A stretch of DNA of 64,000 bases from an uncultured Desulfobacterales bacterium (GTDB taxonomy: Bacteria > Desulfobacterota > Desulfobacteria > Desulfobacterales > JAFDDL01): assembly GCA_964407825.1 (NCBI GenBank), contig CAYOXD010000001.1, forward strand, positions 46,032 through 110,031, written 5' to 3'. The position numbers and the translations under genes were made by a program. This document shows, in pieces, positions 10,145 to 63,968 of this stretch; within the stretch, counting starts at the first letter, position 1; every line of letters begins with the position of its first letter. The notes beneath the pieces were generated by a model. It was not told where the DNA came from. It did not search any database and saw nothing but the letters and a program-made list of their open reading frames with translations.

Positions 10145-10161
10145 ACAAGAAGAAAATACAA

Positions 10162-10191
10162 AGCCCGCCGGCATGGCCGGCGGGCTTTTTT
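10162..10191 (+). terminator. Rho-independent terminator, probably bidirectional (decarboxylase gene and convergent tRNA)
   Basis: AGCCCGCCGGC-atg-GCCGGCGGGCT followed by TTTTT on the plus strand. On the minus strand the same hairpin is followed by TTTGTATTTTCTTCTT. Confidence 0.8.
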
Positions 10192-10194
10192 CTC

Positions 10195-10271
10195 TGGTGG
10201 CGATGCAGGGATTTGAACCCCGGACACTGCGGATATGAGCCGCATGCTCTGACCGACTGAGCTACATCGCC
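10195..10271 (-). tRNA. tRNA with CAU anticodon (elongator Met, or Ile2 if lysidine-modified), CCA encoded
   Basis: The reverse complement GGCGATGTAGCTCAGTCGGTCAGAGCATGCGGCTCATATCCGCAGTGTCCGGGGTTCAAATCCCTGCATCGCCACCA folds as a cloverleaf. Anticodon loop is CTCATAT. G1-C72 pair and no GGG/CCC anticodon stem, so not an initiator. Confidence 0.9.
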
Positions 10272-42879: not shown

Positions 42880-43260
42880 TCACCATCATCCTTAATTATA
42901 TGGTCTGGTGCAACGGGTTGCGGGTCAGGCGCTCTGAACTCCTGCTCACTCCTGATGGACTCATCAGCCGCATCCTCGCCATAGGTCAAAGAGCGCTTTC
43001 TTTGATCTACGGGTTGGGGCGTGCAACTAACATACCACGGAGAGGCATGGGGCAAAATGTTTCGCACGAAGGGGTCTCATCCGGTCCATAGCGCCACAAC
43101 CATCTGTTATAAAACCCCTTTGGCCCATCCTCTCCCTGGATGGGCAAAAGCCGCCATGGCATGATCCACCTTTGCTGGGTTCAAGGACCAGCAAAAAATC
43201 AGCCCCAGCGCAGTCGGATGCCAACCTTCTGACATGCGAACTGTATGAAAATCCATTCAC

Positions 43261-49968: not shown

Positions 49969-50844
49969 TCACCTGAGGATCAGCACCGTGGCCTGGCTCT
50001 CCGTGACGAGCCTGTTCACCTTCCTTTTGGGCAACCATTTTCCCAACAAGGTCTGCGGCCCCATCCAAAGGGCCAGCATCTCCCCTGGGCGGTCCTGGGA
50101 GGTGAACGAATCCAGGGAGGCGATATCCACACTTTCCACCAGTGGTTCAATGCCCAACGCACGGTAGTAGTTAAGGATATTGACCAGCCGGTTTTCCACA
50201 TCGGCCTTTAACGCACCGCTGCTGCCGGTGAAGCCCACCAGGGTCAGGCCGGCGCCGTGAATGGTCAATAATTGATTGATCAGTTCCAGGGAGGCCTGGG
50301 TCACCGCGTCCCCATCCAGACAGCAAACAATCCGGTCAATTCTCGCTGCCCGTTTGACCACCATGACGGAACAGGGGGCCTCGTTGACGATCCGCTGGGG
50401 TGCCGTGGGATGCCCCGGCCACCCCTGCCCCTGGGACGGCGGATCACATCCGATTACGATAAGATCGCTCGGATCCTCCAGGACCTCCGTCAAAACGGCC
50501 TTGGCAGGGTCACCGGAGCGAAGATGTTTGATGAGCTGCTTTCTGCCATCTTCCGCGCCCCGGCAAGAACACCGGCCATTGTCTGAACCCGTGCCGTCCT
50601 GAAATTCCCCGGTATCCCCATAGGGGCTGTCACCGGTCGGAAAGGCGCTCATAAATTGCTCCACGTAACCGTTCAAAGCGGTCCGAAGCGAAGGACCACC
50701 AGCTGGTCCGGAGGCTGAATCGCCAGGCTTCGCCTCCAGTCCCAAGAAGGTGACATTGGCCCACGTATTGACCGCCAGGGCGCGAACCTCGTTCACAGCG
50801 GTGGCGCTGTATGGATTGTCATCCAGGGCAAGCAATATTTTCAT
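49969..50844 (-). CDS. Tandem universal stress protein (UspA family)
   Basis: MKILLALDDNPYS... and a second Usp-like half (VMVVKR, RIVCCLDGD). 291 aa. Confidence 0.75.
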   Translation of the reverse strand: MKILLALDDNPYSATAVNEVRALAVNTWANVTFLGLEAKPGDSASGPAGGPSLRTALNGYVEQFMSAFPTGDSPYGDTGEFQDGTGSDNGRCSCRGAEDGRKQLIKHLRSGDPAKAVLTEVLEDPSDLIVIGCDPPSQGQGWPGHPTAPQRIVNEAPCSVMVVKRAARIDRIVCCLDGDAVTQASLELINQLLTIHGAGLTLVGFTGSSGALKADVENRLVNILNYYRALGIEPLVESVDIASLDSFTSQDRPGEMLALWMGPQTLLGKWLPKRKVNRLVTESQATVLILR

Positions 50845-50905
50845 GGAACCCTCCTCCTTCCCGGTTCTCGGGATGGGTAACCGACGACGACACTGCGGGA
50901 GTTTA

Positions 50906-51745
50906 TCATGACCGCCTGCAAAAGAGCAGTGCCGAGGGGACGCGGCTGAGGCAGTCCAGCAGCGGGGAACTCTGGCCGATGTGATGGGGCAGGGACACCA
51001 GTACCAGCTGATACCCCGCCAGCCGGTCGCCGACGACCTTGGGCAGCCCCGCCAGATGCATGACGGTCTCGGGCAGGCATCCGCCCTCCTTCAGGATGGC
51101 ATGGGTTTGGGCCACCGGCTCTTCCGGCGCCATCGCCCCAACGGAAAGGGCCGTTTCATCCACGTGTTCCGGACCGGCCTTCCCCGCCCTGCCAAACTCG
51201 CAGGTTATCAGATCCACCGCCACGCCGGTAGCTTTGAAGAGCCGGGTGAAGGTACGCGCCTGGGCCGTGCCGGTCTCGTCCGGATCCATCAGGATCACTG
51301 CCCGCTTGAGTTCCACCGGATTTTTCACCATGAGGATGGGGCATGGAATCTGCTGATAGAATTTGGAATGCAGTTCCTTGTAAAAATGCTGGGAAGAGAA
51401 CGAGTGCAGCAGGCCTGTGATGAAAAGATCATAATCGGACTCCCTCAACTCGCGAAGGATCCCGGTTTGTGGCTGTCCCAGCAGGATCTTCGGCGGCGCC
51501 AGCGTAGGGCATCGATCCTTCTCCATGGCGATAACCTGGCCGATTTGCTCCGTAGCCTGGCTGATCAGCCCCTTCTCCCATGTTCGGCGAACCCAGCCGC
51601 TCCCCGGCGGATGGTCCTCGGTGTCGGGCGGCTCCACGTGTAAGATGTTGATTTCCATGCCGGTGAGCGTTGCCAGTTGACAGGCATACCGCAGCGCGAT
51701 GGTAGCCGCCAGGTCCGCGTTCAAGTACACGATGGATTTTAACAT
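50906..51745 (-). CDS. Tandem universal stress protein-like
   Basis: 279 aa with two Usp-like halves (INILHVEPP..., PILMVKNP..., VILMDPDETG). Confidence 0.65.
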   Translation of the reverse strand: MLKSIVYLNADLAATIALRYACQLATLTGMEINILHVEPPDTEDHPPGSGWVRRTWEKGLISQATEQIGQVIAMEKDRCPTLAPPKILLGQPQTGILRELRESDYDLFITGLLHSFSSQHFYKELHSKFYQQIPCPILMVKNPVELKRAVILMDPDETGTAQARTFTRLFKATGVAVDLITCEFGRAGKAGPEHVDETALSVGAMAPEEPVAQTHAILKEGGCLPETVMHLAGLPKVVGDRLAGYQLVLVSLPHHIGQSSPLLDCLSRVPSALLFCRRS

Positions 51746-51801
51746 AGACTCCTCCCAATTCGGTTGTATCTTCTATCCTTGAGCAACCCGAAGCGTACGC
51801 C

Positions 51802-52197
51802 TCAGGTATTTTGCGGTTTCATTAGCTCTTCTTCAGCGCGCTTGACTGCTTCCAGGATCTCTCCCATCTTGAACGGCTTGGCCAGAAAATCGAAGACTCC
51901 CTTCTGGTAGGAGGTCTTTGCCGTTTCCATGGTGGCGAACCCGGTGATCACGATCACCACCGTGCGGGGGGAACGTTCCTTGACGACACCCAGAAATGCC
52001 ATGCCGTCCATGCCCTCCATCTTCAGGTCAGTGATGACGATATCAAATTCCTTCTTGAGGACCCGGGCGAAGGCGTCCTGGCTGCGCAAATAGGTTTCGA
52101 CTTCGTAACCGCACTTTTCCAGCACGGGACGCAACCGGTTTAAAACGATCTGTTCGTCGTCCAGAATGAGTATGGATGTTTTGCCATGGTTTGCCAT
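51802..52197 (-). CDS. Stand-alone response-regulator receiver (CheY-like)
   Basis: ILILDDEQ, DIVITDLKMEGMDG, LAKPF. Start at MANHGKTS (GGGGGGAAAG SD), not the track start at 52284. Confidence 0.85.
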   Translation of the reverse strand: MANHGKTSILILDDEQIVLNRLRPVLEKCGYEVETYLRSQDAFARVLKKEFDIVITDLKMEGMDGMAFLGVVKERSPRTVVIVITGFATMETAKTSYQKGVFDFLAKPFKMGEILEAVKRAEEELMKPQNT

Positions 52198-52280
52198 TTT
52201 CTTTCCCCCCAGTCTATTGGGTTGTGCGAAAGCGTTGGATCCCCGGAACGCCGTATGGAAGAGCCCCATTGCCCGGCCCC

Positions 52281-54854
52281 TCACGGGGACGGGGCGGCCT
52301 CCCTGGCGGTCATTTCTTGAAACAGGGTCAGATAACGCTCGATTTGACCGTCGCTGTTCATCTTGACATCGAGCTGGCGGGTAAAGGCGACCAGCCGGCC
52401 CAGAAGAGACATTTGGGACACCATGACGCCGGGTGCCCGTTTCTTGACTCTCGCCACGACCAGATCCTGCCGGAGTTGCACCACAAAATCGTTTTGCTCG
52501 AGGATCATGGCGATCAGTTTGGCGCGCCGGTTTCGCCGGGTCTGATCCGTCACCCCCCCGAGGAAGCGAAAATAGGCGTAATTGTCGTTCACGTTCTCGC
52601 TGATATAGGCGTCAATGATATTGAAGTGATACCCCACCCGCAGGTGAATGTTGGTGTACTGCCTGGACACCACCGCCAGGTTCCGTCCGATCTCCTTCGG
52701 GCTGGCCTGGTGTGTGGAAAAGGTACGCGTTATGCTGGACATGAGGCTCTTGAAATCCACGACCACCGGATCGGTGCTCCACAGGTCCGCGGCCTGAAGT
52801 CCCGCTAAAAAGGCCCGCATGGGCCGGGATCGCACCTGGGAGGGCTCGACGAGGGACGCGTCTTCCCCGTCCGAGACGCCCCCACCGATATCGATGAGGG
52901 TCAGGTGCAGTGGGATGTCCAGCTTGAGACGCATCTCCTGCCCCTTGGACCAGCCCAAAACACGACTCGCGTTCAGATGCGACAATTCGGCAACCGCCTT
53001 TTCATGGATGAACCGCGTGATATCATGATAGGTCTGGCAATTTCGAGGTGTAAAATTCTTGTCCTTTGGATCCACCAGATTCAGCGGGGCGATCCTTTTC
53101 AGTATCCGCCGCAGCAGGCGGTATTCGTACGTCTCCTCAAAGGGATGGGCCACGAATTCATAGAGACAGAGCTTATCGACGATCCCATCGTAGATGATAT
53201 TCTGCTCCGCGTCCATGGTAATTTCCCGTCCGGAATCCAGTAGCTTGGTGGCCACATCCGTATTGACAATGGCGGGGATGCGAAATTCCCGGACGATGGT
53301 GGCCATATGTCCCGTGGCCGATCCGATGTCCGTGATCATGCCCCGCGCCCTGCCCGCCACAGCGGCAAACTTTGGCGAGGACTGCTTGGCCACCAGGATG
53401 GCGCCGCTCGGGAACCGCTCGAGATCCTCATCCGTGCGGACCACCCAGACCGGACCGCTGGCAACGCCGTTCTGGGCCACAACGCCCTTTCCGGAAAAGA
53501 TGATCGGGTGATCGCTGATAACTTCCGAAATATCGCAGACCACTTGGCTGATCCGGGCCCGGATGTTCAGGGGGCGGGACTGGAGGATGTGGAGGTCGCC
53601 CTGGGCGTCGAAGGTCCATTCCACCTCCTGGGGTTTGCGAAAGTATTGTTCGATGCCGAGCCCCAGTGAAGCAATGCGCAGGATCTCCGCCTCCGTCAGG
53701 CAGGGCCGGTCCTGCTCCTCTAGGGGAACCGGTTCGAAAGCACATCCACCCCCGGCCTGCAGGCTCCAGCGCAGGGGCTTGGGGACCACCTCCATTCGCA
53801 TGATCCGCTGCGGGCTGCTTCGGGTGATCTGGTACTGGTCAGCCACCACCTTTCCGGCCACGACGGGCGCTCCCAATCCCCAGGCAGCCGAAAGCGTCAT
53901 CCTTTCAGAATCGGGCGCCACGGGATCGAGGGTCAGGAGCACCCCGCTCTTGGCCCCTTCGATGGTCCGCTGGCAGGCCACGGCCATGGCCACCTCATTG
54001 TCGTAAATACCCTTTTCCAGCCGGTAATTCATGGCGGATGCCGCATAGGTCGATGCCAGAACCTGCCGGTACGCCTCCATGAGATGGTCCGGTGAAATGT
54101 TGAGCAGGGTTGCGAACTGGCCAGCAAAGCTATGCTCGCTGTCCTCACCCAGGGCGCTGCTTCGGATGGACCAACTGGGCCGGAGGGCCTCAGGCCCCTT
54201 TTGGGCTTCCGACAGGGCGCTTCGAACCGCCTGGCGGATATCGGATGGTACCTCGCCGGCCAGAATCATGGATTTAATCTGCCGTGAGGCTTCCGCAGTG
54301 GGAATCCCACCCGATGTCCACTGCGCCAGAATGGCGGGGATCTTCTGGGTCAGGCCGTTGGCATCCAGGAACCGCTGGAAAGCCGCCACGGTGATGGCAA
54401 ACCCATCTGGAATGGGCATGGCCAATCTGTTTTTCAATTCGGCGAGGTTGGCATTTTTCCCCCCCACCACCTCGGCCGAGGCGACGGTGATGTCCCGGTA
54501 GGGAATGGTCAGGGGCATGTGAGATACATTGACCCGTCCTTCGAGCTCCATTTGGATGTCGCGGGATATCCGTTCAAAGGGTTCCGCGATCTCCCGGTAG
54601 GATTCCTGAACAAGAATGTTAAAATTATCAATGAGGGTATGAACCAAATCCGTCATGCGCTCACAGGTGCTTAGGATGTACTGACGGTCGAACACGTAGG
54701 CGCCACCGGACTTATCGTTTATGTCCGCCATGAGTTCCAGGATCTGGTTGTTGAGTTTCAAGATGTCCTGAAACCGGGCGAAAAGAACGGTCAGGGGTGC
54801 CGGCGTCCGCCTGCGGCGCCATCCCGCCAGGAGTTGCCTGACCAGTTTGATCAT
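52281..54854 (-). CDS. PpsA-like PEP-utilising enzyme with a non-canonical C-terminal region
   Basis: PPDK_N ATP-grasp region (VVGGKNANLAELKN) and phosphohistidine swivel domain (GSATGHMATIVREFRIPAIVN). The last 300 aa or so lack motifs I associate with the PEP/pyruvate TIM barrel. The N-terminal part (about 130 aa) is unassigned. Confidence 0.7.
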   Translation of the reverse strand: MIKLVRQLLAGWRRRRTPAPLTVLFARFQDILKLNNQILELMADINDKSGGAYVFDRQYILSTCERMTDLVHTLIDNFNILVQESYREIAEPFERISRDIQMELEGRVNVSHMPLTIPYRDITVASAEVVGGKNANLAELKNRLAMPIPDGFAITVAAFQRFLDANGLTQKIPAILAQWTSGGIPTAEASRQIKSMILAGEVPSDIRQAVRSALSEAQKGPEALRPSWSIRSSALGEDSEHSFAGQFATLLNISPDHLMEAYRQVLASTYAASAMNYRLEKGIYDNEVAMAVACQRTIEGAKSGVLLTLDPVAPDSERMTLSAAWGLGAPVVAGKVVADQYQITRSSPQRIMRMEVVPKPLRWSLQAGGGCAFEPVPLEEQDRPCLTEAEILRIASLGLGIEQYFRKPQEVEWTFDAQGDLHILQSRPLNIRARISQVVCDISEVISDHPIIFSGKGVVAQNGVASGPVWVVRTDEDLERFPSGAILVAKQSSPKFAAVAGRARGMITDIGSATGHMATIVREFRIPAIVNTDVATKLLDSGREITMDAEQNIIYDGIVDKLCLYEFVAHPFEETYEYRLLRRILKRIAPLNLVDPKDKNFTPRNCQTYHDITRFIHEKAVAELSHLNASRVLGWSKGQEMRLKLDIPLHLTLIDIGGGVSDGEDASLVEPSQVRSRPMRAFLAGLQAADLWSTDPVVVDFKSLMSSITRTFSTHQASPKEIGRNLAVVSRQYTNIHLRVGYHFNIIDAYISENVNDNYAYFRFLGGVTDQTRRNRRAKLIAMILEQNDFVVQLRQDLVVARVKKRAPGVMVSQMSLLGRLVAFTRQLDVKMNSDGQIERYLTLFQEMTAREAAPSP

Positions 54855-54893
54855 ACCCTCATTCCCCCGTTGGTTCCCAGAAGCCGCAGCGTA

Positions 54894-55679
54894 TCAGTGT
54901 GCGCCCCCGCCCCCCTTGAACAGATACCCGATGAGCAGGCCGGCACCAATGGCTACCAGTACCGCCAGGACCCCATAGAGCAAGCTGTGATTGAAGGCAA
55001 GATTGGACAGAAACGCCGGCATTCCCACTGTTCGCGCCTGGATCACATGGGCATCCCGCGCCAGGATCTGCCCGTCCCGGATGGCAAAGGTCTCCAAGGT
55101 GTAAGCGCCGGGCACCAGCCCCGATGGCAAATGAACGCTGGCATGAAAGGCCCTGACACCCCCCTTGTCCTCGTAATGGATGGCGCGGGATTGGATGCCG
55201 TAGAGTCCATCGCGTTCCTTCAGCTTCAGGAACTCTCCAATGAGCAACTGTCGGTCCTGCCCCTGGGGCGAAATCTCTATTTTCCTCGCCAGGGACTCGA
55301 AGCCCAATCCCAGCTTTTGCCAGGTTTCGGGCTGGTGGGTCATCAGCCAGCTCAGCTCGTTCGATGGCACCAGCAGCATCAGCGTCGGCACGTTATCCAT
55401 TTCCACCGAGCCCATATTCATCCATAACACCCGCAGGGCCTTCCCCTTCTTTTTGAAGTGCTCGTTGCCGAGTTTTCCCGTGATCCGGATCAGGGCCTCT
55501 GCATCTTTGGGAAGGGTTCCGGAGACGAACAGATTGTCCCCATTATATGTGGTTCCGATGGAAACGGCAGCAGGATTCACGTAAACGGTCAGGGGTGTTT
55601 CCATCATGGCAGCGGCCTGCCCCCCCCATCCCAAGGCAACCGCCAAAAAAATCATCAAAGCACAGCGTTGAATTCTCAT
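54894..55679 (-). CDS. TIGR02186/DUF2186-like secreted protein with C-terminal TM anchor
   Basis: Signal peptide MRIQRCALMIFLAVALGWGGQAAA and C-terminal TM segment LLYGVLAVLVAIGAGLLIGYLF. Typically paired with TauE/DUF81 genes, as here (3-nt gap). Confidence 0.5.
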   Translation of the reverse strand: MRIQRCALMIFLAVALGWGGQAAAMMETPLTVYVNPAAVSIGTTYNGDNLFVSGTLPKDAEALIRITGKLGNEHFKKKGKALRVLWMNMGSVEMDNVPTLMLLVPSNELSWLMTHQPETWQKLGLGFESLARKIEISPQGQDRQLLIGEFLKLKERDGLYGIQSRAIHYEDKGGVRAFHASVHLPSGLVPGAYTLETFAIRDGQILARDAHVIQARTVGMPAFLSNLAFNHSLLYGVLAVLVAIGAGLLIGYLFKGGGGAH

Positions 55680-55682
55680 TGA

Positions 55683-56612
55683 TCAATGTCCTCCCATATG
55701 AGCCAGTAGTATACCGGGTTGTGCCAGAAGCCCATAGAGCATCTTGCCCATGACCACCAACACGAGAGAAGCCAGGATGATTTTGAGTTGATCGGCTTTC
55801 AGATTCTTGCTGATTTTTGCCCCCAGCTGGGCGCCGAGGGCAGAACCGACCATCAAAAACAGCGCCAGCACAAAATCGACGGTGTGATTGCTGTAAGACT
55901 GCATGATGGTAACGTCGATGCAGGTGAACAGGATCTGGAAAAGGCTCGTTCCCACCACCACGTGCATGGGCATCCGGAGCATATACACCATCACCGGTAC
56001 CATGATAAATCCGCCGCCGACGCCCATGATCGCGGCCAGGACCCCCACCAGGACCCCCATCGCCAAGGGCAGCAAAAAGGACATCTCCACGCCGGATTTG
56101 TCAAAATAGGTCTGCCCGGGCAACATCTTTATCAGGCGGCTGTAAGAGGATTCCTTTACGGGCGCGGCTTTTTGGGCCGTGTCGATGGGTTTCTTGCGGA
56201 GCGCCTGAAGGCTCTCCACGAACATGAAGATACCGACGAACCCCAGCATCAACACATAGGTGACATTGATCAGAAAGTCGGCGTTTCCCAGGTGGCGCAG
56301 CACCTTGATTACCTGCACCCCGCCGGTCCCACCGATAACGCCGCCGATCAGGAGCAGAATCCCCATCTTAAAGTCCACGTTTCCCAGGCGGTAATGGGCA
56401 AAGGTGCCGGAGGTGGAAGCCCCTACGATCTGGTTGGAATCCGAGGCCGCCGCCACTGTGGGGGGGATACCGAACATAATCAGAAGCGGCGTCATGAGAA
56501 ACCCACCACCCACTCCGAATATGCCGGAGAGCAAGCCAACGAGGCCACCCAACCCCAGGATCAAGAACACATTGATGCTGTTTCCTGCAATCGGTAAATA
56601 CAAATGCCACAT
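55683..56612 (-). CDS. TauE/SafE (DUF81) family anion exporter
   Basis: 309 aa, 8-9 TM helices, Gly-rich repeated halves (GLLSGIFGVGGGFLMTP and AAIMGVGGGFIMVP). Confidence 0.85.
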   Translation of the reverse strand: MWHLYLPIAGNSINVFLILGLGGLVGLLSGIFGVGGGFLMTPLLIMFGIPPTVAAASDSNQIVGASTSGTFAHYRLGNVDFKMGILLLIGGVIGGTGGVQVIKVLRHLGNADFLINVTYVLMLGFVGIFMFVESLQALRKKPIDTAQKAAPVKESSYSRLIKMLPGQTYFDKSGVEMSFLLPLAMGVLVGVLAAIMGVGGGFIMVPVMVYMLRMPMHVVVGTSLFQILFTCIDVTIMQSYSNHTVDFVLALFLMVGSALGAQLGAKISKNLKADQLKIILASLVLVVMGKMLYGLLAQPGILLAHMGGH

Positions 56613-56637
56613 GATGGTCTCCTTATATAATAAAAGA

Positions 56638-57054
56638 TTAACTTATCGGCTTCATATGAACGACTTCGATACGGCAGGTCAGTCGGTGGTGAAGTTTCTC
56701 GAGGAATTCGGCAAAATCGCCTTCATGGGCATCGGATTCGCCTGGAGAGGCGATCACCAGGAGGGTGATCCGGTTCTGCTGGATGTGACGGATCAGCTCG
56801 CCTGCATAGTCCCCCTGGGCCTGATAATATTCCAGGGGGACCCCATCGGCGCGGCCCTCGTCGATCAACGCCTTGATCTTGTCCATGGCCGTTTCCACAT
56901 GCTTCGGGGAGTGATCCCCCCCCCCGCCCCTGGCCGGTGGAACCACCAGCAGAAAAGACACGTGCGAATTGATACGCTTGGCCAGGTTCAGAGCATGAAT
57001 GCCAGCCCACAGGCTGGCGGGGTCCGGACTCATTCCGGCTAAAATTCTTTCCAT
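56638..57054 (-). CDS. Universal stress protein (single domain)
   Basis: Start at MERILAGMSPD with GGAAGGAGA SD (track start 57111 is an over-extension). Usp-like LLVIASPGESD. Confidence 0.7.
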   Translation of the reverse strand: MERILAGMSPDPASLWAGIHALNLAKRINSHVSFLLVVPPARGGGGDHSPKHVETAMDKIKALIDEGRADGVPLEYYQAQGDYAGELIRHIQQNRITLLVIASPGESDAHEGDFAEFLEKLHHRLTCRIEVVHMKPIS

Positions 57055-57081
57055 GGCGTCTCCTTCCATCCGGAATGAAAC

Positions 57082-57097
57082 AGCATGAACCATGCCA
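57082..57097 (-). promoter_or_regulatory. Sigma-54 (-24/-12) promoter for the USP-TauE-...-USP operon
   Basis: The minus strand reads TGGCATGgttcATGCT, with GG and GC separated by exactly 10 nt. Located 28-43 nt upstream of the ATG at 57054 and downstream of the sigma-54 activator gene. Confidence 0.6.
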
Positions 57098-57159
57098 CAT
57101 TTGCGAGTCAATTATATCAATTTGTTACAACGAAAGAAGGGGGCCCCGGGCATCATTCT

Positions 57160-57173
57160 TTTCAAATTGAAAC
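57160..57173. promoter_or_regulatory. Candidate enhancer (UAS) site A
   Basis: TTTCAAATTGAAAC (contains the perfect 6-1-6 palindrome TTTCAA-a-TTGAAA). About 65-75 bp upstream of the -24 element. Confidence 0.4.
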
Positions 57174-57241
57174 ATAAGGGGCAAAATACCTAATTGTCGT
57201 GGTATATCATTGGGATGGGTGAAAATTCCGAAATGCGCTTG

Positions 57242-57255
57242 TTTCGTTTTGAAAC
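57242..57255. promoter_or_regulatory. Candidate enhancer (UAS) site B
   Basis: TTTCGTTTTGAAAC. It has the same TTTC-N3-TTGAAAC frame as site A, exactly 82 bp away. Confidence 0.4.
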
Positions 57256-57273
57256 GCGGATAAACGCAACCCC

Positions 57274-58629
57274 TCACCCCCGTAACCGATAGCGTTTCAT
57301 TTTGCGCCATAGCGTGGTCCGGGGAAGATTCAGGATCTTGGCGGCCTGGATCTTATTGTTCCGGGTCTTCCTGAGCACCTTTTGGATGTGCAACCTCTCG
57401 ATCTCCTCGAGGTTAAGAAGTCCTTCGCCCTCGATGAGATTGAATTCGAGCTGCTGAAGATCGGGCGGCAGGTCCCGCACCTGCACAACCTTGCCGTTGC
57501 TCAAGGCCACGGCTCGCTGAATGATGTTCTCGAGTTCGCGCACATTTCCCGGGAAATGATACTGCATTAGAACATCCAGTGCCTTATCGGAGATGCCCTC
57601 CACAGTCTTGCCGAAGTACCCGTTGTACTTGCCGATGAAGGCGGAAACAAACAGCGGGATATCCTCCCGTCGTTCGGTGAGCCGGGGCAGATGTATGGAA
57701 ACCACATTGAGCCGGTAGAACAGATCCTCCCGGAACTCACCGTCCTGGCTTGCCTTCTTCAGATCCTTGTTGCTGGCAGCGACAATTCGGATGTCCACCG
57801 CGATGGACTGGGTACCGCCAACCCGCAGAATGGCCTTCTCCTGGATGGCACGCAGAAGCTTCACCTGCATGGACAGGGGCATTTCGCCGATTTCGTCAAG
57901 GAAAACCGTGCCGCCGGCGGCCGAGTCCAGCAGACCGATCTTGGTATGGGTAGCGCCCGTGAAGGCCCCCTTCTCGTGGCCGAAAAGCTCGCTGCAGATC
58001 AGTTCCTCGTTGAAGGCCGCGCAGTTGAAAGACACAAAGGGCTTGCCCGATCGGGGACTGATGGCATGGATGGACCGGGCGACGAGCTCCTTTCCCGTAC
58101 CACTGTCCCCCTGGAGCAACACGTTGCAATCCACGGCGGCCACCTTGTTCACCATGGCCAGCACCTCCTGCATGGCCGGGCAGGCACCGATGAACTGATC
58201 CGCGACGGGGTGCCGGGGGGTCAGGGCCGCCTGAAGGCGACGGTTTTCTTCGCGCGCCAGGAATCTCTCTCTGGCGCCCGCGGCCAATGCCGTAATCTGG
58301 CTGAGCTTGAAAGGCTTGCTGAGATAGTGGAAGGCAGCCTTTTTCATGGCCTCCACAGCGGATTCGATGGACCCGTGTCCGGTGATGACAATGATCTCCA
58401 CATCCTCGTAACGTTCGGTCAGGGCGGAGAGGATCTCCATGCCCTGGATATCCGGCAGTTTCAGATCCAGGAAGATGAGCTGAAAGGGGGCTTCGGCCAT
58501 ACGTTTCAAAAAGGGACTGCCCGCGCCGAAGGTCTCCGTTTTAAAACCCTCTTTCTCCAGAACAGGTGTTAACCGGTCACGGACGATGACCTCATCGTCC
58601 ACTACGGCCGCTCGAAAAAATGGCGTCAC
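57274..58629 (-). CDS. Sigma-54-dependent response regulator (NtrC family: REC-AAA+-Fis HTH)
   Basis: REC domain (VVDDE..., LIFLDLKLPD), Walker A GDSGTGKE, GAFTGA loop (EKGAFTGA), C-terminal HTH AAKILNLPRTTLWRKMKRY. The GTG start overlaps the kinase stop. Confidence 0.9.
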   Translation of the reverse strand: MTPFFRAAVVDDEVIVRDRLTPVLEKEGFKTETFGAGSPFLKRMAEAPFQLIFLDLKLPDIQGMEILSALTERYEDVEIIVITGHGSIESAVEAMKKAAFHYLSKPFKLSQITALAAGARERFLAREENRRLQAALTPRHPVADQFIGACPAMQEVLAMVNKVAAVDCNVLLQGDSGTGKELVARSIHAISPRSGKPFVSFNCAAFNEELICSELFGHEKGAFTGATHTKIGLLDSAAGGTVFLDEIGEMPLSMQVKLLRAIQEKAILRVGGTQSIAVDIRIVAASNKDLKKASQDGEFREDLFYRLNVVSIHLPRLTERREDIPLFVSAFIGKYNGYFGKTVEGISDKALDVLMQYHFPGNVRELENIIQRAVALSNGKVVQVRDLPPDLQQLEFNLIEGEGLLNLEEIERLHIQKVLRKTRNNKIQAAKILNLPRTTLWRKMKRYRLRG

Positions 58630-60053
58630 GATGTTTCCCCCTGTGGCGTATCGATGGGCAGCGAAATGGTGAAGCAGGTCCCCTCGTCCACCCGGCTGTT
58701 GACCTCGACGGATCCGCCATGGGCATGAATGATGCCATAGACGAGGGAAAGCCCCAGGCCGGTGCCCTTGCCGACCTCCTTGGTCGTGTAAAATGGATCG
58801 AAGATATGGGCCATGTCCGAAGCGGGGATGCCGATCCCCGTATCGGAAATGGTGACGCGGACCCGGTCCTTGTCCCCCGGCGACGCGCCGATCTCGATGG
58901 TGCCCCCCTGGGGCATGGCATGGATGGCGTTGATGATGATGTTGACAAAGGCGTTTTCCAGTTGCTGCTGCTTTCCCCTAACCGGCGGCAGCCCCGGGGC
59001 GATGTTCTTCACCAGGACGATCCCCTTGACCATGAGTTGATTTTTCACCAATTGCAGCGTTTTTTCAAGGACGCTGCTGATGTCCAGGCGGACGAGGACC
59101 GGCTTTTCGGATCTCGAAAACTCCAGCAAATGCTTCACGATGAGGCTGGCCCGGTCAGCCTGGCCGATAATGTCCTCCAGGAGGCTTTTGCGCTCCTCCA
59201 GATCGTCTCCCCCACCGTCGCCCATCAGCAACAGGGTCTCGGCCGTCAGGGATATATTGTTCAAGGGGTTATTGAGCTCATGGGCGATGCCCGAGGTGAA
59301 GGTGCCGATGGAGGCCAGCTTCCTGGACTGGAGCAGCTGTTCCTGTCGGGTTTCCAACTCGACGGCCATCTTGTTGAAAGCGTCGATTAATTTGGTGATT
59401 TCATTTACATTTTTAACGTGATAGGAGATGGGGCGGAAGCTCCCGGAGGCCAAATGTTTCAAGGCACCCCGAATGGTGTAGAGCGGCTTGAGGATGCTGG
59501 CGCTGACCAATTGGAAAACGATAATGGTAAGGGCGACAAAGATCACGAAGTAGGCAACCGGGAGAATCAGGCTACGGTTCAGCGCGTTATCGATGTGGCT
59601 GCGCTTGGTCCGGATCAGGTTCTGGGCGAATTCCACCAGATTCTTTCCCTGATCCCGGATCTCCTCCACACGGGCGCCCTGGCGCCCCTGGGCACCGGCG
59701 GCCATGGCCTTTTTCATGAGGGCCGCATAGTCCCCGAGGGCGCTCTTGAACCTGAGGAACTGCTTACGCCCCACGACCTGGGAGATATCAGGGCCAAGCG
59801 AGTCAAAGCCCTCTTCGGTCTTCGCGAGATAGGCCTCCCAATTTTCGATGCTGGCAGCATCGCCGTAGTAGGTAAAGTTCTTTTCAAAGCGCCGCATTTC
59901 CAGGATATGGTTGAGGACATTGTCGAAATTCTCGATCATGACCAATTTGCGCTTCAGGGAATACATGGTGGCATAGTGCAGAATCGTCAGCATCCCGCTG
60001 AAAATCAGGCACACGGCAAAGAGCGTAATGATCCGTCCCCGGATGGACTTCAT
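58626..60053 (-). CDS. Sensor histidine kinase (2 TM, extracytoplasmic helical sensor, HAMP, HisKA, HATPase_c)
   Basis: H-box SGIAHELNNPLN, N-box NIIINAIHAM, G-boxes DTGIGI and GTGLGL. Start at MKSIRGRIITLFAV (GGGGAGG SD), not the track start at 60143. Confidence 0.85.
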   Translation of the reverse strand: MKSIRGRIITLFAVCLIFSGMLTILHYATMYSLKRKLVMIENFDNVLNHILEMRRFEKNFTYYGDAASIENWEAYLAKTEEGFDSLGPDISQVVGRKQFLRFKSALGDYAALMKKAMAAGAQGRQGARVEEIRDQGKNLVEFAQNLIRTKRSHIDNALNRSLILPVAYFVIFVALTIIVFQLVSASILKPLYTIRGALKHLASGSFRPISYHVKNVNEITKLIDAFNKMAVELETRQEQLLQSRKLASIGTFTSGIAHELNNPLNNISLTAETLLLMGDGGGDDLEERKSLLEDIIGQADRASLIVKHLLEFSRSEKPVLVRLDISSVLEKTLQLVKNQLMVKGIVLVKNIAPGLPPVRGKQQQLENAFVNIIINAIHAMPQGGTIEIGASPGDKDRVRVTISDTGIGIPASDMAHIFDPFYTTKEVGKGTGLGLSLVYGIIHAHGGSVEVNSRVDEGTCFTISLPIDTPQGETS

Positions 60054-60078
60054 GGTGGCCTCCCCATCCCTGTCTCTG

Positions 60079-60108
60079 AATATAGACCTCATGATATGGT
60101 GTTCGCAA
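60079..60108 (-). promoter_or_regulatory. Candidate sigma-70 promoter of the kinase/activator operon
   Basis: The minus strand reads TTGCGA, then an 18-nt spacer, then TATATT. This would give a leader of about 20 nt containing the SD. Confidence 0.3.
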
Positions 60109-60237
60109 GGCTCGAGGGAAGAAACGCACGCCGACCCCGTCACGGCCGAGAGCGCAGCCCTGAACCAATCCCTTGGGACTTATTATATAAAGGCGCGCCA
60201 ATTATCAACCCGGCCTGCATCCGGAAAATGCTTTCCA

Positions 60238-60261
60238 TTGAACCCGTTTTATGCGAAACCC
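60238..60261. promoter_or_regulatory. Third occurrence of the GGGTTCAA-type half-site (site E)
   Basis: The plus strand reads TTGAACCCgttttatgCGAAACCC, which on the minus strand is GGGTTTCG-N8-GGGTTCAA. About 185-210 bp upstream of the kinase start. Confidence 0.3.
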
Positions 60262-60372
60262 ACCTTACAGCGGCACCAATCCGGGAGCCATCATCCAAAG
60301 CTGGCCTGGGCATCCGCCGGGGGGCCGACTGGCATGATCATCCAACCCCATCCTATCAAGGAGGAACCTGAA

Positions 60373-60723
60373 ATGGCCAATTTCCTGTTTGTACTCAGCT
60401 CGAATGACAATGAAAAGGCAACCCGCTGTTTTCAATTCGCAAAAATCGCCCACGGCAAGGGACACAGGGTAAACCTGTTCTTCATCGACGGCGGGGTCGA
60501 ATGGGCGATTCGAGACAGGGACGGAAGCATTCGGACCACCACCGGCGACTGCCCTGCCGACTACCTCCCCTATCTGGTGGAAAACGAAGTCCCCGTGGGC
60601 ATCTGCACGCCCTGCGCCAACAGCCGGAAGCTCGACGAAGCCCGCTTCCATCCCAACATGGCCCTGGACGGCGGCCCGCATCTGATCGATATGGCGGCTG
60701 AATCCAAGGTATTTAATTTCTAG
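60373..60723 (+). CDS. DsrE/DsrF-like family protein
   Basis: MANFLFVLSSNDNEKATRCFQFAKIAHGKGHRVNLFFIDGGV...PVGICTPCANSRKL...KVFNF. AAGGAGGA SD. The track ORF from 60028 is an over-extension. Confidence 0.7.
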   Translation: MANFLFVLSSNDNEKATRCFQFAKIAHGKGHRVNLFFIDGGVEWAIRDRDGSIRTTTGDCPADYLPYLVENEVPVGICTPCANSRKLDEARFHPNMALDGGPHLIDMAAESKVFNF

Positions 60724-60769
60724 GGGAGAGGATGTTCACCGGGAACAGCTGCCGCGTAGGGCCCATGCT

Positions 60770-60787
60770 GGGTTCAAAATATTGAAC
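60770..60787. promoter_or_regulatory. Candidate enhancer (UAS) site C
   Basis: GGGTTCAAAATATTGAAC (inverted GTTCAA / TTGAAC halves). About 215-230 bp upstream of the plus-strand sigma-54 promoter. Confidence 0.4.
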
Positions 60788-60851
60788 ACTCCCGAATATG
60801 CTTGTTATCCATTTATTATTATTTATTATTTTATACAAAACCACCGAAATC

Positions 60852-60869
60852 GGGTTCAAAATTACGAAC
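60852..60869. promoter_or_regulatory. Candidate enhancer (UAS) site D
   Basis: GGGTTCAAAATTACGAAC. The first 11 nt are identical to site C, exactly 82 bp downstream of it. Confidence 0.4.
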
Positions 60870-60935
60870 GGATACCTACCCAGCGCCGGGGGAGCCCCCA
60901 GGGGCGCGCCGGTTCCGAGCATGCCTCAAACCATG

Positions 60936-60948
60936 ATTCATCATGAAT
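60936..60948. promoter_or_regulatory. Perfect 13-bp palindrome between the UAS sites and the sigma-54 promoter
   Basis: ATTCAT-c-ATGAAT. It lies in an A/T-rich stretch that also contains the tandem repeat ATTTATTATT x2 (60811-60830). Possible bending or IHF-type site. Confidence 0.3.
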
Positions 60949-61002
60949 AAAATAAGCTCGTTATGAAATACATCAAAGACACGGGGAGGGCTTATTCGAT
61001 AT

Positions 61003-61018
61003 TGGCATTGCTATTGCA
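61003..61018 (+). promoter_or_regulatory. Sigma-54 (-24/-12) promoter for lutC-lutBA
   Basis: TGGCATTgctaTTGCA. TGGCA and TTGCA both match the consensus, with exact GG-N10-GC spacing. Confidence 0.7.
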
Positions 61019-61109
61019 TCCTTACTTTTCCAGTCAGATAATTAATTTCATCTGTTCTCCTCCTTTCGGCTGGTTGTTTGGGCGCAACCGGCCGATATTT
61101 TCTCCTCCT

Positions 61110-61157
61110 AACGGCCGGTCGGGGGCTCGACTCCCGGTCGGCCGTTCCTATTTTTTT
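61110..61157 (+). terminator. Leader terminator (attenuator) candidate upstream of lutC
   Basis: AACGGCCG-gt-CGGGG-gctcga-CTCCCG-gt-CGGCCGTT hairpin (61110-61146), then CCTA, T7 (61151-61157) and G8. The 5' arm can alternatively pair with ACCGGCCG at 61087-61094. Confidence 0.45.
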
Positions 61158-61206
61158 GGGGGGGGCTCCAGTTCTGGACCTGTTGAATCCGGTGCCAGGG
61201 GGTGGT

Positions 61207-61821
61207 ATGGGTTCGCGCAAGACCCTGTGGTATGGATTGGGAAGGGATCAACCGATGGTCTCCAACAACGTCTCGGACATATTCACCCGAAATCTGAGCG
61301 CCGTGTCAGCCGTTGTGCACCCGGTGGCGAGCCTCGACGAGACCTTGGCCTATGCTGTGGCACTGTGTGAGGTCAGAACGTCCGGATGCCTGCGCCCCGG
61401 GGTGGCGGCCCCGGGCCTCGATGGACCGCTTTTCCATCGCCTGACGGCCCTCTGCGCCGATCGGGGGGTCCGCATGGTCCAGAGGAACCTGCGACGCTTC
61501 AGCGACGGCTTCGATGTGGGCTTCACCCTCGCAGACTACGGCATTGCGGAGACCGGAACCCTGGTAATCGACTCCTCCTCCGAGGATCTGCGCCTGGCCA
61601 CCATGCTGTGCGACACCCATGTGGTGGTCCTGCCCCTGAGCCGGCTGCGGGCGACGGCCGCGGAGGCGGCGCCCGAACTGACCCTGCTAATGAAACACCC
61701 GCCTGCCGCTTATCTCGCCTTCATCACGGGTGCCAGCCGAACGGCGGACATCGAACGGGTCCTGGCCCTGGGGGTTCACGGCCCCCTGGCCCTCCACGCC
61801 CTCCTGTGGGAGGACCGCTGA
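61207..61821 (+). CDS. lutC: LutC-like LUD-domain protein (lactate utilisation protein C)
   Basis: LUD motif ADYGIAETGTLVIDS. Start at 61207 (AGGGGG SD) or 61255 (GGGAAGGGA SD); the track start at 61078 lies inside the leader. The stop overlaps the next ATG (TGATG). Confidence 0.75.
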   Translation: MGSRKTLWYGLGRDQPMVSNNVSDIFTRNLSAVSAVVHPVASLDETLAYAVALCEVRTSGCLRPGVAAPGLDGPLFHRLTALCADRGVRMVQRNLRRFSDGFDVGFTLADYGIAETGTLVIDSSSEDLRLATMLCDTHVVVLPLSRLRATAAEAAPELTLLMKHPPAAYLAFITGASRTADIERVLALGVHGPLALHALLWEDR

Positions 61822-63968
61822 TGCCGCCCAAGGATCTCAAAACCTACCGCAGGGAAGTGGCAGGGGCCCTCTCCGACCGGTTTCTGCGAAGGGCCATGGA
61901 CAACTTCGCTGTCACCTATCGATCGGGACGCGATCGCGTCTTTGCCGGAATGGACGTGGAGACGCTGGTTCAGGATATCGCCCGGCTGAAAAGCCTGGCC
62001 ATCGGGCAGATCGATTCTCTATTGGAGCAGTTCAAGGCCAACGCCGAACGGGCCGGTGTCCAGGTCCACCTGGCGAGCACGGCCCAGGAGGCGAACGCGA
62101 TCATCCACGCCATCGCCCGTGACAACGACGCGCGCCGGGTGGTCAAATCCAAGTCCATGACCGCCGAGGAAACAGGTCTCAACCGCTACCTGGAGGATCG
62201 GGGGATCGAGGTCACCGAGACGGACCTGGGGGAGTGGATCGTTCAACTGCGCCGGGAGGGGCCCTCTCACATGGTCATGCCCGCCATCCACCTGTCCCGC
62301 CACCAGGTCGCCGGCCTTTTCGGCCAAGTCACGGGCAAGGCCCAAAACGCCGACATCGAGGCACTGGTCAAGGTGGCGCGCCGGGAACTCCGACAAAAAT
62401 TTTTCGATGCCGACATGGGCATCACCGGCGCCAATTTCGCCCTGGCGGACACGGGCGCCATCGGGCTGGTGACCAACGAGGGAAACGCCCGCCTGGTGAC
62501 CAGCCTTCCGGCGGTGCATGTGGCACTGGTGGGCCTTGAAAAGCTGGTCCCCAGCCTGGACGAGGCACTTCGCATCCTGCGGGTGTTGCCGCGAAACGCC
62601 ACGGGGCAGGCCATTTCCTCCTATGTCACATGGATCACCGGTGCTACGGAATGCACCGTTTCGCCCGGCGGACGAAAACGAATGCACGTGGTGTTTCTGG
62701 ACAACGGACGCCGGGACCTCGCCCAAGACCCCATCTTCTCCCCTGTACTGAGGTGCGTTCGCTGCGGAGCCTGCGCCAACGTGTGCCCGATCTACCGGAT
62801 GGTGGGCGGTCACCGGTTCGGTCATATCTACATCGGCGCCGTGGGGCTTATTCTGACCTATTTTTTCCACGGCCGGGACAGGGCCCGGCATCTGGTTCAA
62901 AACTGCCTCAACTGCGGTGCCTGCAGGAGTGTCTGCGCGGCCGGCATCGATCTGCCCCACCTGATCCAGGAGGTGCACGCCCGCATCACGGATGAAGAGG
63001 GCCACCCCCTGAAGGGGCTGCTGCTGTCCCATATGCTGACCCATCGGCGGGTCTTCCATGGCCTGCTAAAGACGGCCCGGGCGCTCCAGCCGCCCGCCAC
63101 GGAGGCAACCCCCTACCTTCGCCACCTGCCCCATATCTTTTCCGAGGAGCACCGGTTCCGGGCCCTTCCCGCCCTGGCGCAGAGAGCCTTCAGGGACCAG
63201 TGGCCGGAAATCCGGCGCCGGACCCGCTCCCCAAGGGCGCACGTCGCCCTCTTTGCCGGTTGCCTCCAGGATTTTGTCTACCCCGAGCACCTGACAGCGG
63301 CCTGTGATCTTCTGGCAAGGCTGGAGGTGGCGGTCTCCTTTCCCATGGATCAGTCCTGCTGTGGATTGCCGGCCCTGATGATGGGCGAGACCCGCTCGGC
63401 CCGACAGGTGGCCAGAATGAATCTGGAGGCCATGGCCGCCACCGGTGCGGACCATGTGGTGACCCTCTGCGCCTCGTGCGCATCGCATCTTAAAAATACC
63501 TATCCAGCGCTCCTGGGAAGCAACCCGGCCCTCTCGGCTCAGCTGGCGGCCTTTGCCGAGCGGGTCGTGCCCTTCTCGGTCTATTTGAACGACATTTTGG
63601 GGGTGACAGCCGCAGAGATCCGCAGCCCGGCGACCTCGGTCACCTGGCATGCCCCCTGCCATCTATGCCGGGGCCTGGGGGTTCGGCGCGCGCCCCTGGA
63701 ACTCATCCGAAAGGCCGGACACCGCCTCCTGCGGGCAGCCGAGGAGGAAACCTGCTGTGGATTCGGCGGCACCTATTCGAGCCGGTTCCCGCGGATCTCG
63801 GCTGAAATTCTGTCCCGGAAGCTCGATGACGCCATCAAGACGCATGCCCGGGTCCTGGTGACCGAATGCCCGGGCTGCATCCTTCAGCTTCGCGGCGGGG
63901 CCGTGAAACGAAAGGACCACCTGCTGATTCGGCACCTTGCGGAGCTGTTGGCGGATGTGAAGCGTTAG
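61821..63968 (+). CDS. lutB: Fused LutB-LutA: LUD domain + 2x[4Fe-4S] ferredoxin + two CCG cysteine-rich domains
   Basis: Start at MPPKDLKTYRRE. Motifs: ADTGAIGLVTNEGN (LUD), CVRCGACANVCP and CLNCGACRSVC (ferredoxin), CCGLPA and CCGFGG (LutA/HdrD-like CCG). The track ORF from 61386 is an over-extension across lutC. Confidence 0.8.
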   Translation: MPPKDLKTYRREVAGALSDRFLRRAMDNFAVTYRSGRDRVFAGMDVETLVQDIARLKSLAIGQIDSLLEQFKANAERAGVQVHLASTAQEANAIIHAIARDNDARRVVKSKSMTAEETGLNRYLEDRGIEVTETDLGEWIVQLRREGPSHMVMPAIHLSRHQVAGLFGQVTGKAQNADIEALVKVARRELRQKFFDADMGITGANFALADTGAIGLVTNEGNARLVTSLPAVHVALVGLEKLVPSLDEALRILRVLPRNATGQAISSYVTWITGATECTVSPGGRKRMHVVFLDNGRRDLAQDPIFSPVLRCVRCGACANVCPIYRMVGGHRFGHIYIGAVGLILTYFFHGRDRARHLVQNCLNCGACRSVCAAGIDLPHLIQEVHARITDEEGHPLKGLLLSHMLTHRRVFHGLLKTARALQPPATEATPYLRHLPHIFSEEHRFRALPALAQRAFRDQWPEIRRRTRSPRAHVALFAGCLQDFVYPEHLTAACDLLARLEVAVSFPMDQSCCGLPALMMGETRSARQVARMNLEAMAATGADHVVTLCASCASHLKNTYPALLGSNPALSAQLAAFAERVVPFSVYLNDILGVTAAEIRSPATSVTWHAPCHLCRGLGVRRAPLELIRKAGHRLLRAAEEETCCGFGGTYSSRFPRISAEILSRKLDDAIKTHARVLVTECPGCILQLRGGAVKRKDHLLIRHLAELLADVKR

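Follow-up and report, generated by a model that had tools for sequence, protein, structure and literature searches.

The window studied here, a 64-kb stretch (64,000 nucleotides) of contig CAYOXD010000001.1, assembly GCA_964407825.1, from an uncultured Desulfobacterales bacterium, encodes a two-component system formed by a sensor histidine kinase and an NtrC-type sigma-54 activator, which is flanked by two sigma-54 promoters, each with a pair of palindromic repeats upstream. The reading that we favour, with a probability of about 65%, is that two independent sigma-54 modules stand back to back around this two-component system and that each has its own regulator. The minus-side module would be the switch of a USP/permease operon under the local activator, and the plus-side module would drive a small RNA (sRNA) under an activator of another family, encoded elsewhere in the genome. 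This reading splits an apparent single regulon in two, and it assigns testable binding motifs to two activator families from relatives of sulfate reducers, both so far uncharacterised.

Two promoters and two repeat motifs

All sequence strings quoted in an earlier note on this DNA were found at their positions in a read of 56400-61600, and the two promoters with GG-N10-GC spacing that it had proposed are present and conserved in other species. The minus-strand promoter, TGGCATGGTTCATGCT (57097-57082), has one mismatch and is followed by AAGGAGacgccATG, with the ATG at 57054. The plus-strand promoter, TGGCATTGCTATTGCA (61003-61018), has zero mismatches and is the only match to TGGCAN6TTGCW without mismatch in the 64 kb. 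When one mismatch is allowed, the window contains five matches and 8.1 are expected from shuffles, so the sigma-54 pattern by itself is not significant. The orthologous promoter positions keep GG-N10-GC in the comparison loci L001, L002 and L208 and in 41 metagenome loci.

On the minus side, the repeats, in minus-strand reading, are a distal upstream activating site GTTTCAAAACGAAAC at 57241-57255 (listed before as TTTCGTTTTGAAAC at 57242) and a proximal one, GTTTCAATTTGAAAA, at 57159-57173 (listed as TTTCAAATTGAAAC at 57160). They lie 82 bp apart, and the proximal site is 76 bp from the TGGCA start of the promoter. On the plus side, enhancer site 1 is GTTCAAAATATTGAAC, a perfect 6-4-6 palindrome at 60772-60787 within GGGTTCAAAATATTGAAC (60770), and site 2 is GTTCAAAATTACGAAC at 60854-60869 within GGGTTCAAAATTACGAAC (60852), 82 bp from site 1 and with its start 149 bp ahead of the promoter TGGCA. 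At up to one mismatch, GTTCAAAANNNNGAAC has three strand-matches in the window, all at 60772 and 60854, where 0.22 are expected and none of 100 shuffles reaches this count. A weight matrix made from 59 related sites gives 8 bits or more in the window at the two plus-side sites only, site 1 scoring 29.9 bits. GTTTCAAWWTGAAAC, at up to one mismatch, is present in the window only at 57159 and 57241.

The minus-side motif is an odd-centred palindrome, GTTTCAA-N-TTGAAAC (TTCAA-N1-TTGAA), GTTTCAAATTGAAAC, whereas the plus-side motif is even-centred, GTTCAA-N4-TTGAAC (TTCAA-N4-TTGAA), GGTTCAAAAnnTTGAACC. The shared TTCAA/TTGAA cores are therefore 3 bp wider apart on the plus side, and the two pairs of repeats are two different motifs. 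Of the proposal that both pairs are related copies of one repeat, the coordinates and the 82-bp spacing hold, but the common motif does not. A third pair, GGGTTCAA/GGGTTTCG at 60238-60261, is present as described, but is only a half-site that scores below 8 bits and belongs to a segment missing from L208.

The minus-side module

The local activator (57274-58629, minus strand) matches Pfam PF00072 REC, PF00158 Sigma54_activat AAA+ (4.6e-70) and PF02954 HTH_8, and combines a REC domain, an AAA+ domain with GAFTGA (at 57969) and a C-terminal Fis-type helix-turn-helix (HTH). It is the only GAFTGA-bearing open reading frame in the six frames of the window, as the earlier note had it. Its gene is co-operonic with that of the sensor histidine kinase (58626-60053, minus strand; 4HB/HAMP, HisKA and HATPase_c in Pfam), which is called as 475 aa in near-identical strains. 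The putative target operon (52281-57054, minus strand) starts with a USP gene (56638-57054), which is followed by genes for a TauE/TSUP permease (55683-56612), an Alph_Pro_TM protein (54894-55679) and a PPDK_N/PEP-utilising enzyme (52281-54854), all assigned by Pfam.

A scan of a genome collection with the local activator gave few close relatives, with 64-65% identity in L001, 61-62% in L002 and 55% in L003. L208, from a related species and reached via the DsrE cluster, is syntenic and keeps the whole locus. The order of the USP, TauE, Alph_Pro_TM and PpsA-like/PEP-utilising-enzyme genes after the activator is the same in L001, L002 and L208. In L001 the activator stop is followed by two copies of TTTCAAATTGAAA exactly 82 bp apart, then by TTGGCACGTCCTTTGCG (promoter TGGCACGTCCTTTGCG), a Shine-Dalgarno sequence and the USP orthologue. 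L208 has GTTTCATAATGAAAC and GTTTCATATTGAAAA 82 bp apart just past the activator, with the promoter TGGCATGCTTCCTGCT, and L002 has three sites of the minus type, 84 and about 105 bp apart, with the promoter TGGCATCCATATTGCA. The spacing of the minus-type sites in the four species is thus 82 bp in the window, L001 and L208 and 84 bp in L002, and TGGCA lies 76-77 bp from the proximal site in the window, L208 and L001. The leader between promoter and ATG, which had been given as 28 nt with a Shine-Dalgarno sequence, is short and conserved at 26-28 nt.

A four-way alignment (A4) shows conservation in the two sites, in a TTGATAT block and in the promoter. The TTGATAT block matches the consensus of integration host factor (IHF), TATCAAnnnGTTA, and its offset agrees between the window, L208 and L001 (31-33); in the window the match is TATCAATTTGTTA (plus-strand reading) at 57115-57127, midway between proximal site and promoter. 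Possible bending or IHF-type sites had been proposed on the plus side instead. The A/T-rich tandem repeat ATTTATTATT x2, which had been placed between the plus-side sites and their promoter, lies at 60811-60830, between the two sites, and only its AT-richness is kept in L208, not its sequence; the palindrome ATTCATcATGAAT (60936-60948) is not conserved in L208 either. The conserved IHF-consensus match of the locus lies on the minus side in their place.

It is well supported by this synteny that the minus-side set represents the standard signature of an enhancer-dependent, IHF-assisted promoter under the adjacent regulator, and the local activator very probably controls the minus-strand operon. 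The local kinase would phosphorylate the activator, whose dimers would bind the two GTTTCAAATTGAAAC palindromes 82 bp apart, just 3' of the gene that encodes it. Midway along the 76 bp that separate the proximal site from the promoter, an IHF-type bend would let the assembled ATPase touch the sigma-54 RNA polymerase at 57097-57082, and this contact would turn on the USP/TauE-family permease/Alph_Pro_TM/PEP-utilising-enzyme operon. The minus side appears as an ordinary but well-conserved two-component sigma-54 operon switch.

A predicted small RNA after the plus-strand promoter

The plus-strand promoter had been taken as the head of an operon, but it is followed ahead of any gene by two hairpins, the second of which forms a strong terminator with T7, so that the predicted product is a terminated RNA of roughly 128 nt. 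Unit 1 (61029-61102, plus strand) consists of a 5' single strand with the seed UUCAUCUGUUCUCCUCCUU (61047-61065) and a hairpin (61066-61095). Unit 2 (61103-61157, plus strand) has a second anti-Shine-Dalgarno seed, UUCUCCUCCU (61100-61109), a 16-bp G+C-rich terminator hairpin (61110-61146) and a U7 run (61151-61157). UUCUCCUCCU is single-stranded 5' of each of the two hairpins. The minimum free energy (MFE) of the window RNA is -50.9 kcal/mol (z = -5.25), and its seed region is unpaired in the MFE fold. The promoter would drive an RNA of roughly 74 to 128 nt; in the Desulfobacterales module to which it corresponds, the RNA has a length of about 75 nt.

The structure is sustained by covariation among copies of the RNA from other loci. 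Alignment A1, which holds 22 distinct copies and leaves the window out, has a 13-bp terminal helix with compensatory changes in 11 pairs and a near-invariant 5' region of 30 nt. In a model-based alignment of 35 sequences, all 13 pairs of the terminator helix have double changes. Pairing cells amount to 94.9%, against 78.8% in shuffles and at most 54% with slid partners, and none of 500 shuffles reaches the observed value. The covariance model R1, built without the window sequence, matches 61029-61102 over its full length with 45.2 bits (E ~2e-7), beginning at the predicted +1 (61029), and has a second, partial match at 61103-61152 with 16.3 bits (model positions 29-74, seed and terminator). 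L208 has tandem units as in the window, with R1 scores of 49.1 and 19.1 bits, and hairpin 1 differs between the two by two compensatory substitutions. R1 has no match in 75 unrelated activator loci (858 kb), which served as negative control.

The RNA strand contains no ATG and has no coding potential. The conserved single strand (…AAUUUCAUCUGUUCUCCUCCUU…) complements AAGGAGGAGAACAGAUGAA at every base, and AAGGAGGAGAACAGAUGAA reads as an ideal ribosome-binding site with start codon. A possible open reading frame on the opposite strand (MKKLLG…), suggested by this resemblance of the seed complement to a ribosome-binding site plus ATG, was rejected because the ATG is ATA in six of the loci and the spacers vary in length by numbers not divisible by 3. 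Of the features expected of a trans-acting base-pairing sRNA, this RNA has its own predicted sigma-54 promoter, a covarying terminator, a conserved single-stranded seed and a conservation that is independent of its neighbours.

At gathering thresholds Rfam 15 finds only a tRNA in the whole window; at E <=10 the best sub-threshold matches in 60700-61300 reach at most 16.4 bits, and eight loci of the family have none. No published description of this sRNA family was found in the literature. A regular-expression search for the promoter plus CUCCUCC over 80 activator loci from genomes returned same-species copies only. The window RNA is best understood, on covariation and distribution, as a copy with a duplicated seed-hairpin unit of an apparently undescribed and widespread Desulfobacterales sRNA family. 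An unannotated and well-supported family would thereby be added, with covariation, a 30-nt invariant seed directed against ribosome-binding sites, dozens of loci and an activator family of more than 100 clusters.

With a seed strand fully complementary to a strong ribosome-binding site and its AUG, the RNA would pair with translation starts, and it is predicted to block target mRNAs at their translation-initiation regions. A search for targets, by fuzzy matching of the seed's reverse complement to the window and every locus and by RNAduplex against the start regions of the window, gave nothing convincing. The only exact target match, in locus L125, was rejected as an assembly artefact. The contig folds back there (~1637-1739) at the terminator hairpin of the RNA, in a perfect inverted duplication.

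Some variants of the RNA deserve description. The homopolymer after the terminator (61151-61165) is T7G8 in the window, and three metagenome strains that are 99.7% identical to it have an extra TTG there (T9G9), which may be a length polymorphism or a sequencing-prone site; the difference falls exactly on the terminator U-run. Five loci form a diverged branch of the module, in which palindromes and promoter are alike, the activator is ~62% identical with the helix GKSGLNQKLKKF, and the RNA combines a 5' hairpin with the U-rich seed UUUUUCAUCUUUUUUUCCUUUUCU and gives no R1 match at E <0.01. Four other loci have ~190 nt of conserved extra sequence between the promoter and the canonical seed and hairpin; it opens with a degenerate copy of the RNA 5' end and may represent a longer or tandem variant.

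The plus-side enhancer family

Metagenome contigs were scanned with an exact pattern of two GTTCAAAnnnnnGAAC sites 72-92 bp apart, which matched more than 120 stretches; L208, with its GAAT half-sites, escapes this pattern. Tandem-repeat arrays and non-AT-rich matches were set aside. A total of 80 stretches were examined, and 41 of these 80 have the site pair followed by a strong sigma-54 promoter. The module in the 41 loci contains AT-rich palindromes with the consensus GGTTCAAAATTTTGAACC, a promoter such as TGGCAAGGAAATTGCA and, ~30 nt on, CCUAAUAAUUUCUUCAUCUGUUCUCCUCCUUAA, after which a hairpin of variable sequence and a U-run are found. A weight-matrix scan of 39 module loci locates three sites in 30 and two in 9. 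The site period is 76-79 bp in 62 of 69 spacings, and this includes third sites, which the search pattern did not demand. The start of the last site is 143-149 bp from TGGCA in 31/39 loci.

The window has the same organisation, with two GGTTCAAAAnnTTGAACC sites (the family has 2-3), a last site in the 143-149 bp range before TGGCA (149 bp; 147 bp in L208) and an R1-type RNA next. The plus-side sites are 82 bp apart in the window and 80 bp in L208, slightly above the family mode. The L208 counterpart of the plus-strand promoter is TGGCAAGCCTGTTGCA, and the only conserved parts of the 480-580 bp spacer between window and L208 are the two sites, the promoter and the RNA. In the strains that are 99.7% identical to the window, this spacer has four single-nucleotide polymorphisms, and the sites, the promoter and the RNA body are free of them. 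A strict IHF consensus occurs in 3/39 inter-site spacers and 4/39 promoter-proximal regions of plus-type enhancers, and not in the plus-side enhancer of the window, so that AT-richness, not the IHF consensus, is what holds up on the plus side.

What appears unusual in this family is the fixed site period of ~77 bp, which in rough form (76-84 bp) is common to the enhancer of the local activator. We propose tentatively, with the odds somewhat against it, that an undescribed sRNA family with its own kinase/activator pair has as its enhancer an evenly spaced array, of ~77 bp period and with at most three dimer sites, and that the shared 76-84 bp module points to a lineage-wide assembly of sigma-54 activators on bent or wrapped DNA, not on adjacent sites as in classical systems. 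If this were true, each site would take one dimer and each array one hexamer. The unrelated local activator would then use the 76-84 bp layout too, in the order site, 82 bp, site, 76 bp with the IHF site, promoter, and the doubled-seed RNA beside a second sigma-54 system might link the two regulons. The fixed period of 76-79 bp and the promoter distance of 143-149 bp make a clean system for relating enhancer geometry to hexamer assembly.

Which activator controls the RNA

In at least 14 of the loci with enough upstream sequence, a kinase, a 460-aa NtrC-type activator, the sites, the promoter and the RNA follow each other on one strand, and four more contigs end inside the regulator gene. These sRNA-linked activators are 62-86% identical mutually and 41-43% identical to the window activator, no closer than any paralogue would be; over the HTH region, identity to the window activator is 25-31%. 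The recognition helix of the sRNA-linked family is …GIGKSGLNWKIKKF ('GKSGLNWK'), against …NLPRTTLWRKMKRY in the window activator. The GKSGLNWK family is abundant in Desulfobacterales metagenome-assembled genomes, where the top 120 clusters listed are all at least 79% identical and have only generic annotation. Orphan RNA modules in other genomes lie far from any activator gene, which indicates that the RNA does not need a regulator gene beside it.

The simplest reading is that the window RNA is a dispersed copy under a GKSGLNWK-type regulator encoded elsewhere in the genome. This activator would bind GGTTCAAAAnnTTGAACC at 60772 and 60854 and fire the promoter at 61003-61018, for which rpoN dependence is expected, to produce the non-coding RNA. 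The regulator and enhancer of the sRNA family would then be already known, which is unusual for a metagenome sRNA and makes its signal, regulon and targets directly approachable.

The earlier note had taken the single local activator as the candidate regulator of both flanking units, in which case it would bind all four (or five) repeats. It is the sole activator in the window, each pair of sites is exactly 82 bp apart, TTCAA/TTGAA is common to both half-site types, and the RNA module adjoins the two-component locus in the window as well as in L208. For the minus operon the assignment is well supported by the synteny of the orthologues. Extended to the plus side it seems unlikely, since the half-sites differ (N1 against N4) and the plus-motif matrix gives the minus sites less than 8 bits; L001 and L002 have the N1 motif only and lack the RNA within 6 kb; in at least 14 loci the N4 motif goes with another activator family, whose recognition helix is different; and the orphan RNA modules are far from activator genes.

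Several observations count against two separate regulators or against a trans-acting RNA. The 64-kb window has no GKSGLNWK-type activator. Two species, those of the window and of L208, show synteny between the RNA module and the local kinase/activator/dsrE locus, which could mean functional coupling. The shared TTCAA/TTGAA core and the spacing of 80-84 bp in both pairs make cross-recognition possible from sequence. The U-run of the L208 terminator is poor, and seed targets with extended complementarity were not found in the window or the flanking DNA. Finally, lldG starts 50 nt past the terminator with no sigma-70-like promoter between, so that the element may also act in cis.

The environment of the RNA in other genomes is as follows. 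Seven orphan modules have a common neighbourhood, formed upstream by a divergent gene for a 385-aa membrane protein (MKTIEQTKKNPMYLYL…), transporter-like but not domain-checked, and downstream by a same-strand gene (MIIDVHTHIFP…) 60-400 nt away, amidohydrolase-like by eye. In three regulator-linked loci the RNA is followed by a conserved convergent gene for a ~235-aa membrane protein, TPR-like by eye, beyond which two of them have a gene for a sugar kinase, PfkB-like by eye. No seed complementarity was found in the genes 3' of the RNA at these three loci. The flanks of related loci differ, which argues against a single mobile element.

Cis leader or trans-acting RNA

A second alternative, slightly less probable than control of both sides by the local activator, is that the plus-side element is mainly a cis leader, in which sigma-54 transcription of lldG-lutBA passes through hairpins acting as attenuators and the CU-rich stretches could mask the lldG ribosome-binding site, AGGGGGUGG. 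The position of lldG on the same strand, so close behind the U-run, speaks for it, as does a same-strand gene 60-190 nt past the RNA in L208 and the orphan loci. The duplex of seed 1 with the start region of lldG has an energy of -19.8 kcal/mol in RNAduplex, but this value is unremarkable among the start regions of the window. The downstream gene moreover varies, being lldG in the window, Fer4/CCG genes in L208, an amidohydrolase gene in the orphans and a convergent gene in the regulator-linked loci, and what is kept throughout is the RNA together with its terminator. Three loci with LldG relatives at 66-67% identity lack the RNA upstream, which indicates that it is not tied to lactate-utilisation genes; the lldG and LUD-Fer4-CCG genes are not conserved partners of the RNA. 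Cis and trans roles are compatible and not mutually exclusive, and read-through from the sigma-54 promoter may feed the lactate-utilisation genes in addition to the trans role that we favour.

Chance resemblance to the consensus in AT-rich intergenic DNA, which would agree with a one-mismatch sigma-54 pattern no commoner than in shuffles (five against 8.1), is effectively refuted as an explanation of the matches on both sides by the comparative data, in which sites, promoters and RNA are kept across species amid diverging spacer, dozens of independent loci have a common geometry and the shuffles never match the observed site count. Both sigma-54 promoters and both repeat pairs are accordingly regarded as conserved and functional-looking elements, since both modules are kept in other species.

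Neighbouring genes and other features of the window

The plus-side intergenic region is a 480-bp spacer between a DsrE-like gene (60373-60723, plus strand; open reading frame listing and Pfam) and the lldG/lutC-like gene (61207-61821, plus strand), which is followed by a gene for a LUD-Fer4-CCG fusion (61821-63968, plus strand); the last two are assigned by Pfam and gene calls.

On the other side, the minus-strand operon probably continues (49969-52284) into a REC-only response regulator (51802-52284), whose gene overlaps the stop of the upstream gene for the PEP-utilising enzyme, and two tandem-USP proteins (50906-51745 and 49969-50844), all on the minus strand. Counting the tandem-USP pair, this operon would have three USP-family proteins.

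A third good sigma-54-like promoter, TGGTATGTTAGTTGCA, is found at 43022-43037 on the minus strand, ~140 nt upstream of a gene for a FeeM-like N-acyl amino acid synthase (41914-42879, minus strand; Pfam PF21926, 9.6e-43). GGGTTCAA occurs again at 43177, ~140 bp upstream of this promoter, with a weight-matrix score below 8 bits, so it is not a full enhancer site. The tRNA gene that is the sole Rfam match of the window at the gathering threshold is located at 10198-10271 (minus strand), and a bidirectional terminator-like hairpin (10153-10193) adjoins it.

Comparison with known systems

The minus-side module resembles sigma-54 operons of Desulfovibrio vulgaris with TSUP (TauE/SafE) and USP genes, such as the DVU3305 regulon, in which an NtrC-type two-component regulator controls the operon next to it, and this operon encodes membrane proteins and proteins with USP domains. 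TSUP permeases recur among sigma-54 targets. The DVU3305 regulator differs in its GAFSGA and its Lon-protease partner regulator, and the published tables contain no matching motif.

The anti-Shine-Dalgarno seeds recall the alphaproteobacterial ar14 or 'cuckoo'-type sRNAs (RF02344), which have repeated CU-rich anti-Shine-Dalgarno motifs in a short RNA. RF02344 is weakly the best Rfam match to the window RNA, with 16 bits and E 1.2 against a gathering threshold of 58.8. The ar14 RNAs have these motifs in hairpin loops, whereas here they are located in single-stranded linkers 5' of the hairpins, and promoter type and lineage also differ.

In Vibrio, the Qrr RNAs are transcribed with sigma-54 and the NtrC-type regulator LuxO; these sRNAs are short, end at a terminator and have a single-stranded seed that does not vary. 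One copy is located beside the regulator gene and the others are dispersed. The family described here resembles them in these respects but has no homology to Qrr and no Rfam match, and lineage, seed and enhancer geometry are others.

The GlmY/GlmZ system of Enterobacteriaceae, controlled by GlrK/GlrR (QseE/QseF), also has an sRNA gene beside the genes for a kinase and an NtrC-type regulator. As here, its promoter is of the sigma-54 type, the activator sites, three palindromes, lie more than 100 bp upstream with the most distal as the weakest, and IHF or a bend is involved (PMC3045617). A second sRNA copy is encoded elsewhere under common control, comparable to the orphan modules here (PMC3045617). 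The two systems share neither sequence nor structure homology, nor is there an Rfam match; the site motif is TGTCN10GACA there and GGTTCAAAAnnTTGAACC here, where the sites follow a ~77 bp period. The seed here is directed against Shine-Dalgarno sequence and AUG, so a repressor is predicted, unlike GlmZ, which activates glmS, and GlmY, which serves as a decoy.

Closer in lineage are the sigma-54 non-coding RNAs of D. vulgaris, likewise a sulfate-reducing member of the Desulfobacterota, in which DVU0653, DVU0679, DVU1419 and DVU2359 regulons have a non-coding RNA 3' of the response-regulator gene, with a promoter of the sigma-54 type and palindromic sites, two or three in number (PMC3333781, PMC4641369). 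Their site motifs, TGTCCGCnATCGCGGACA and CGTGCGATATCGCACG, are spaced 14-33 bp instead of ~77 bp, and their HTH sequences differ from both systems of the window. Neither of the two motifs described here matches the published D. vulgaris motif tables, and the window does not belong to the DVU0653/DVU0679 regulons. A member of none of these systems, the plus-side module matches in its design GlmY/GlmZ-GlrKR, the non-coding RNA regulons of D. vulgaris and Qrr-LuxO.

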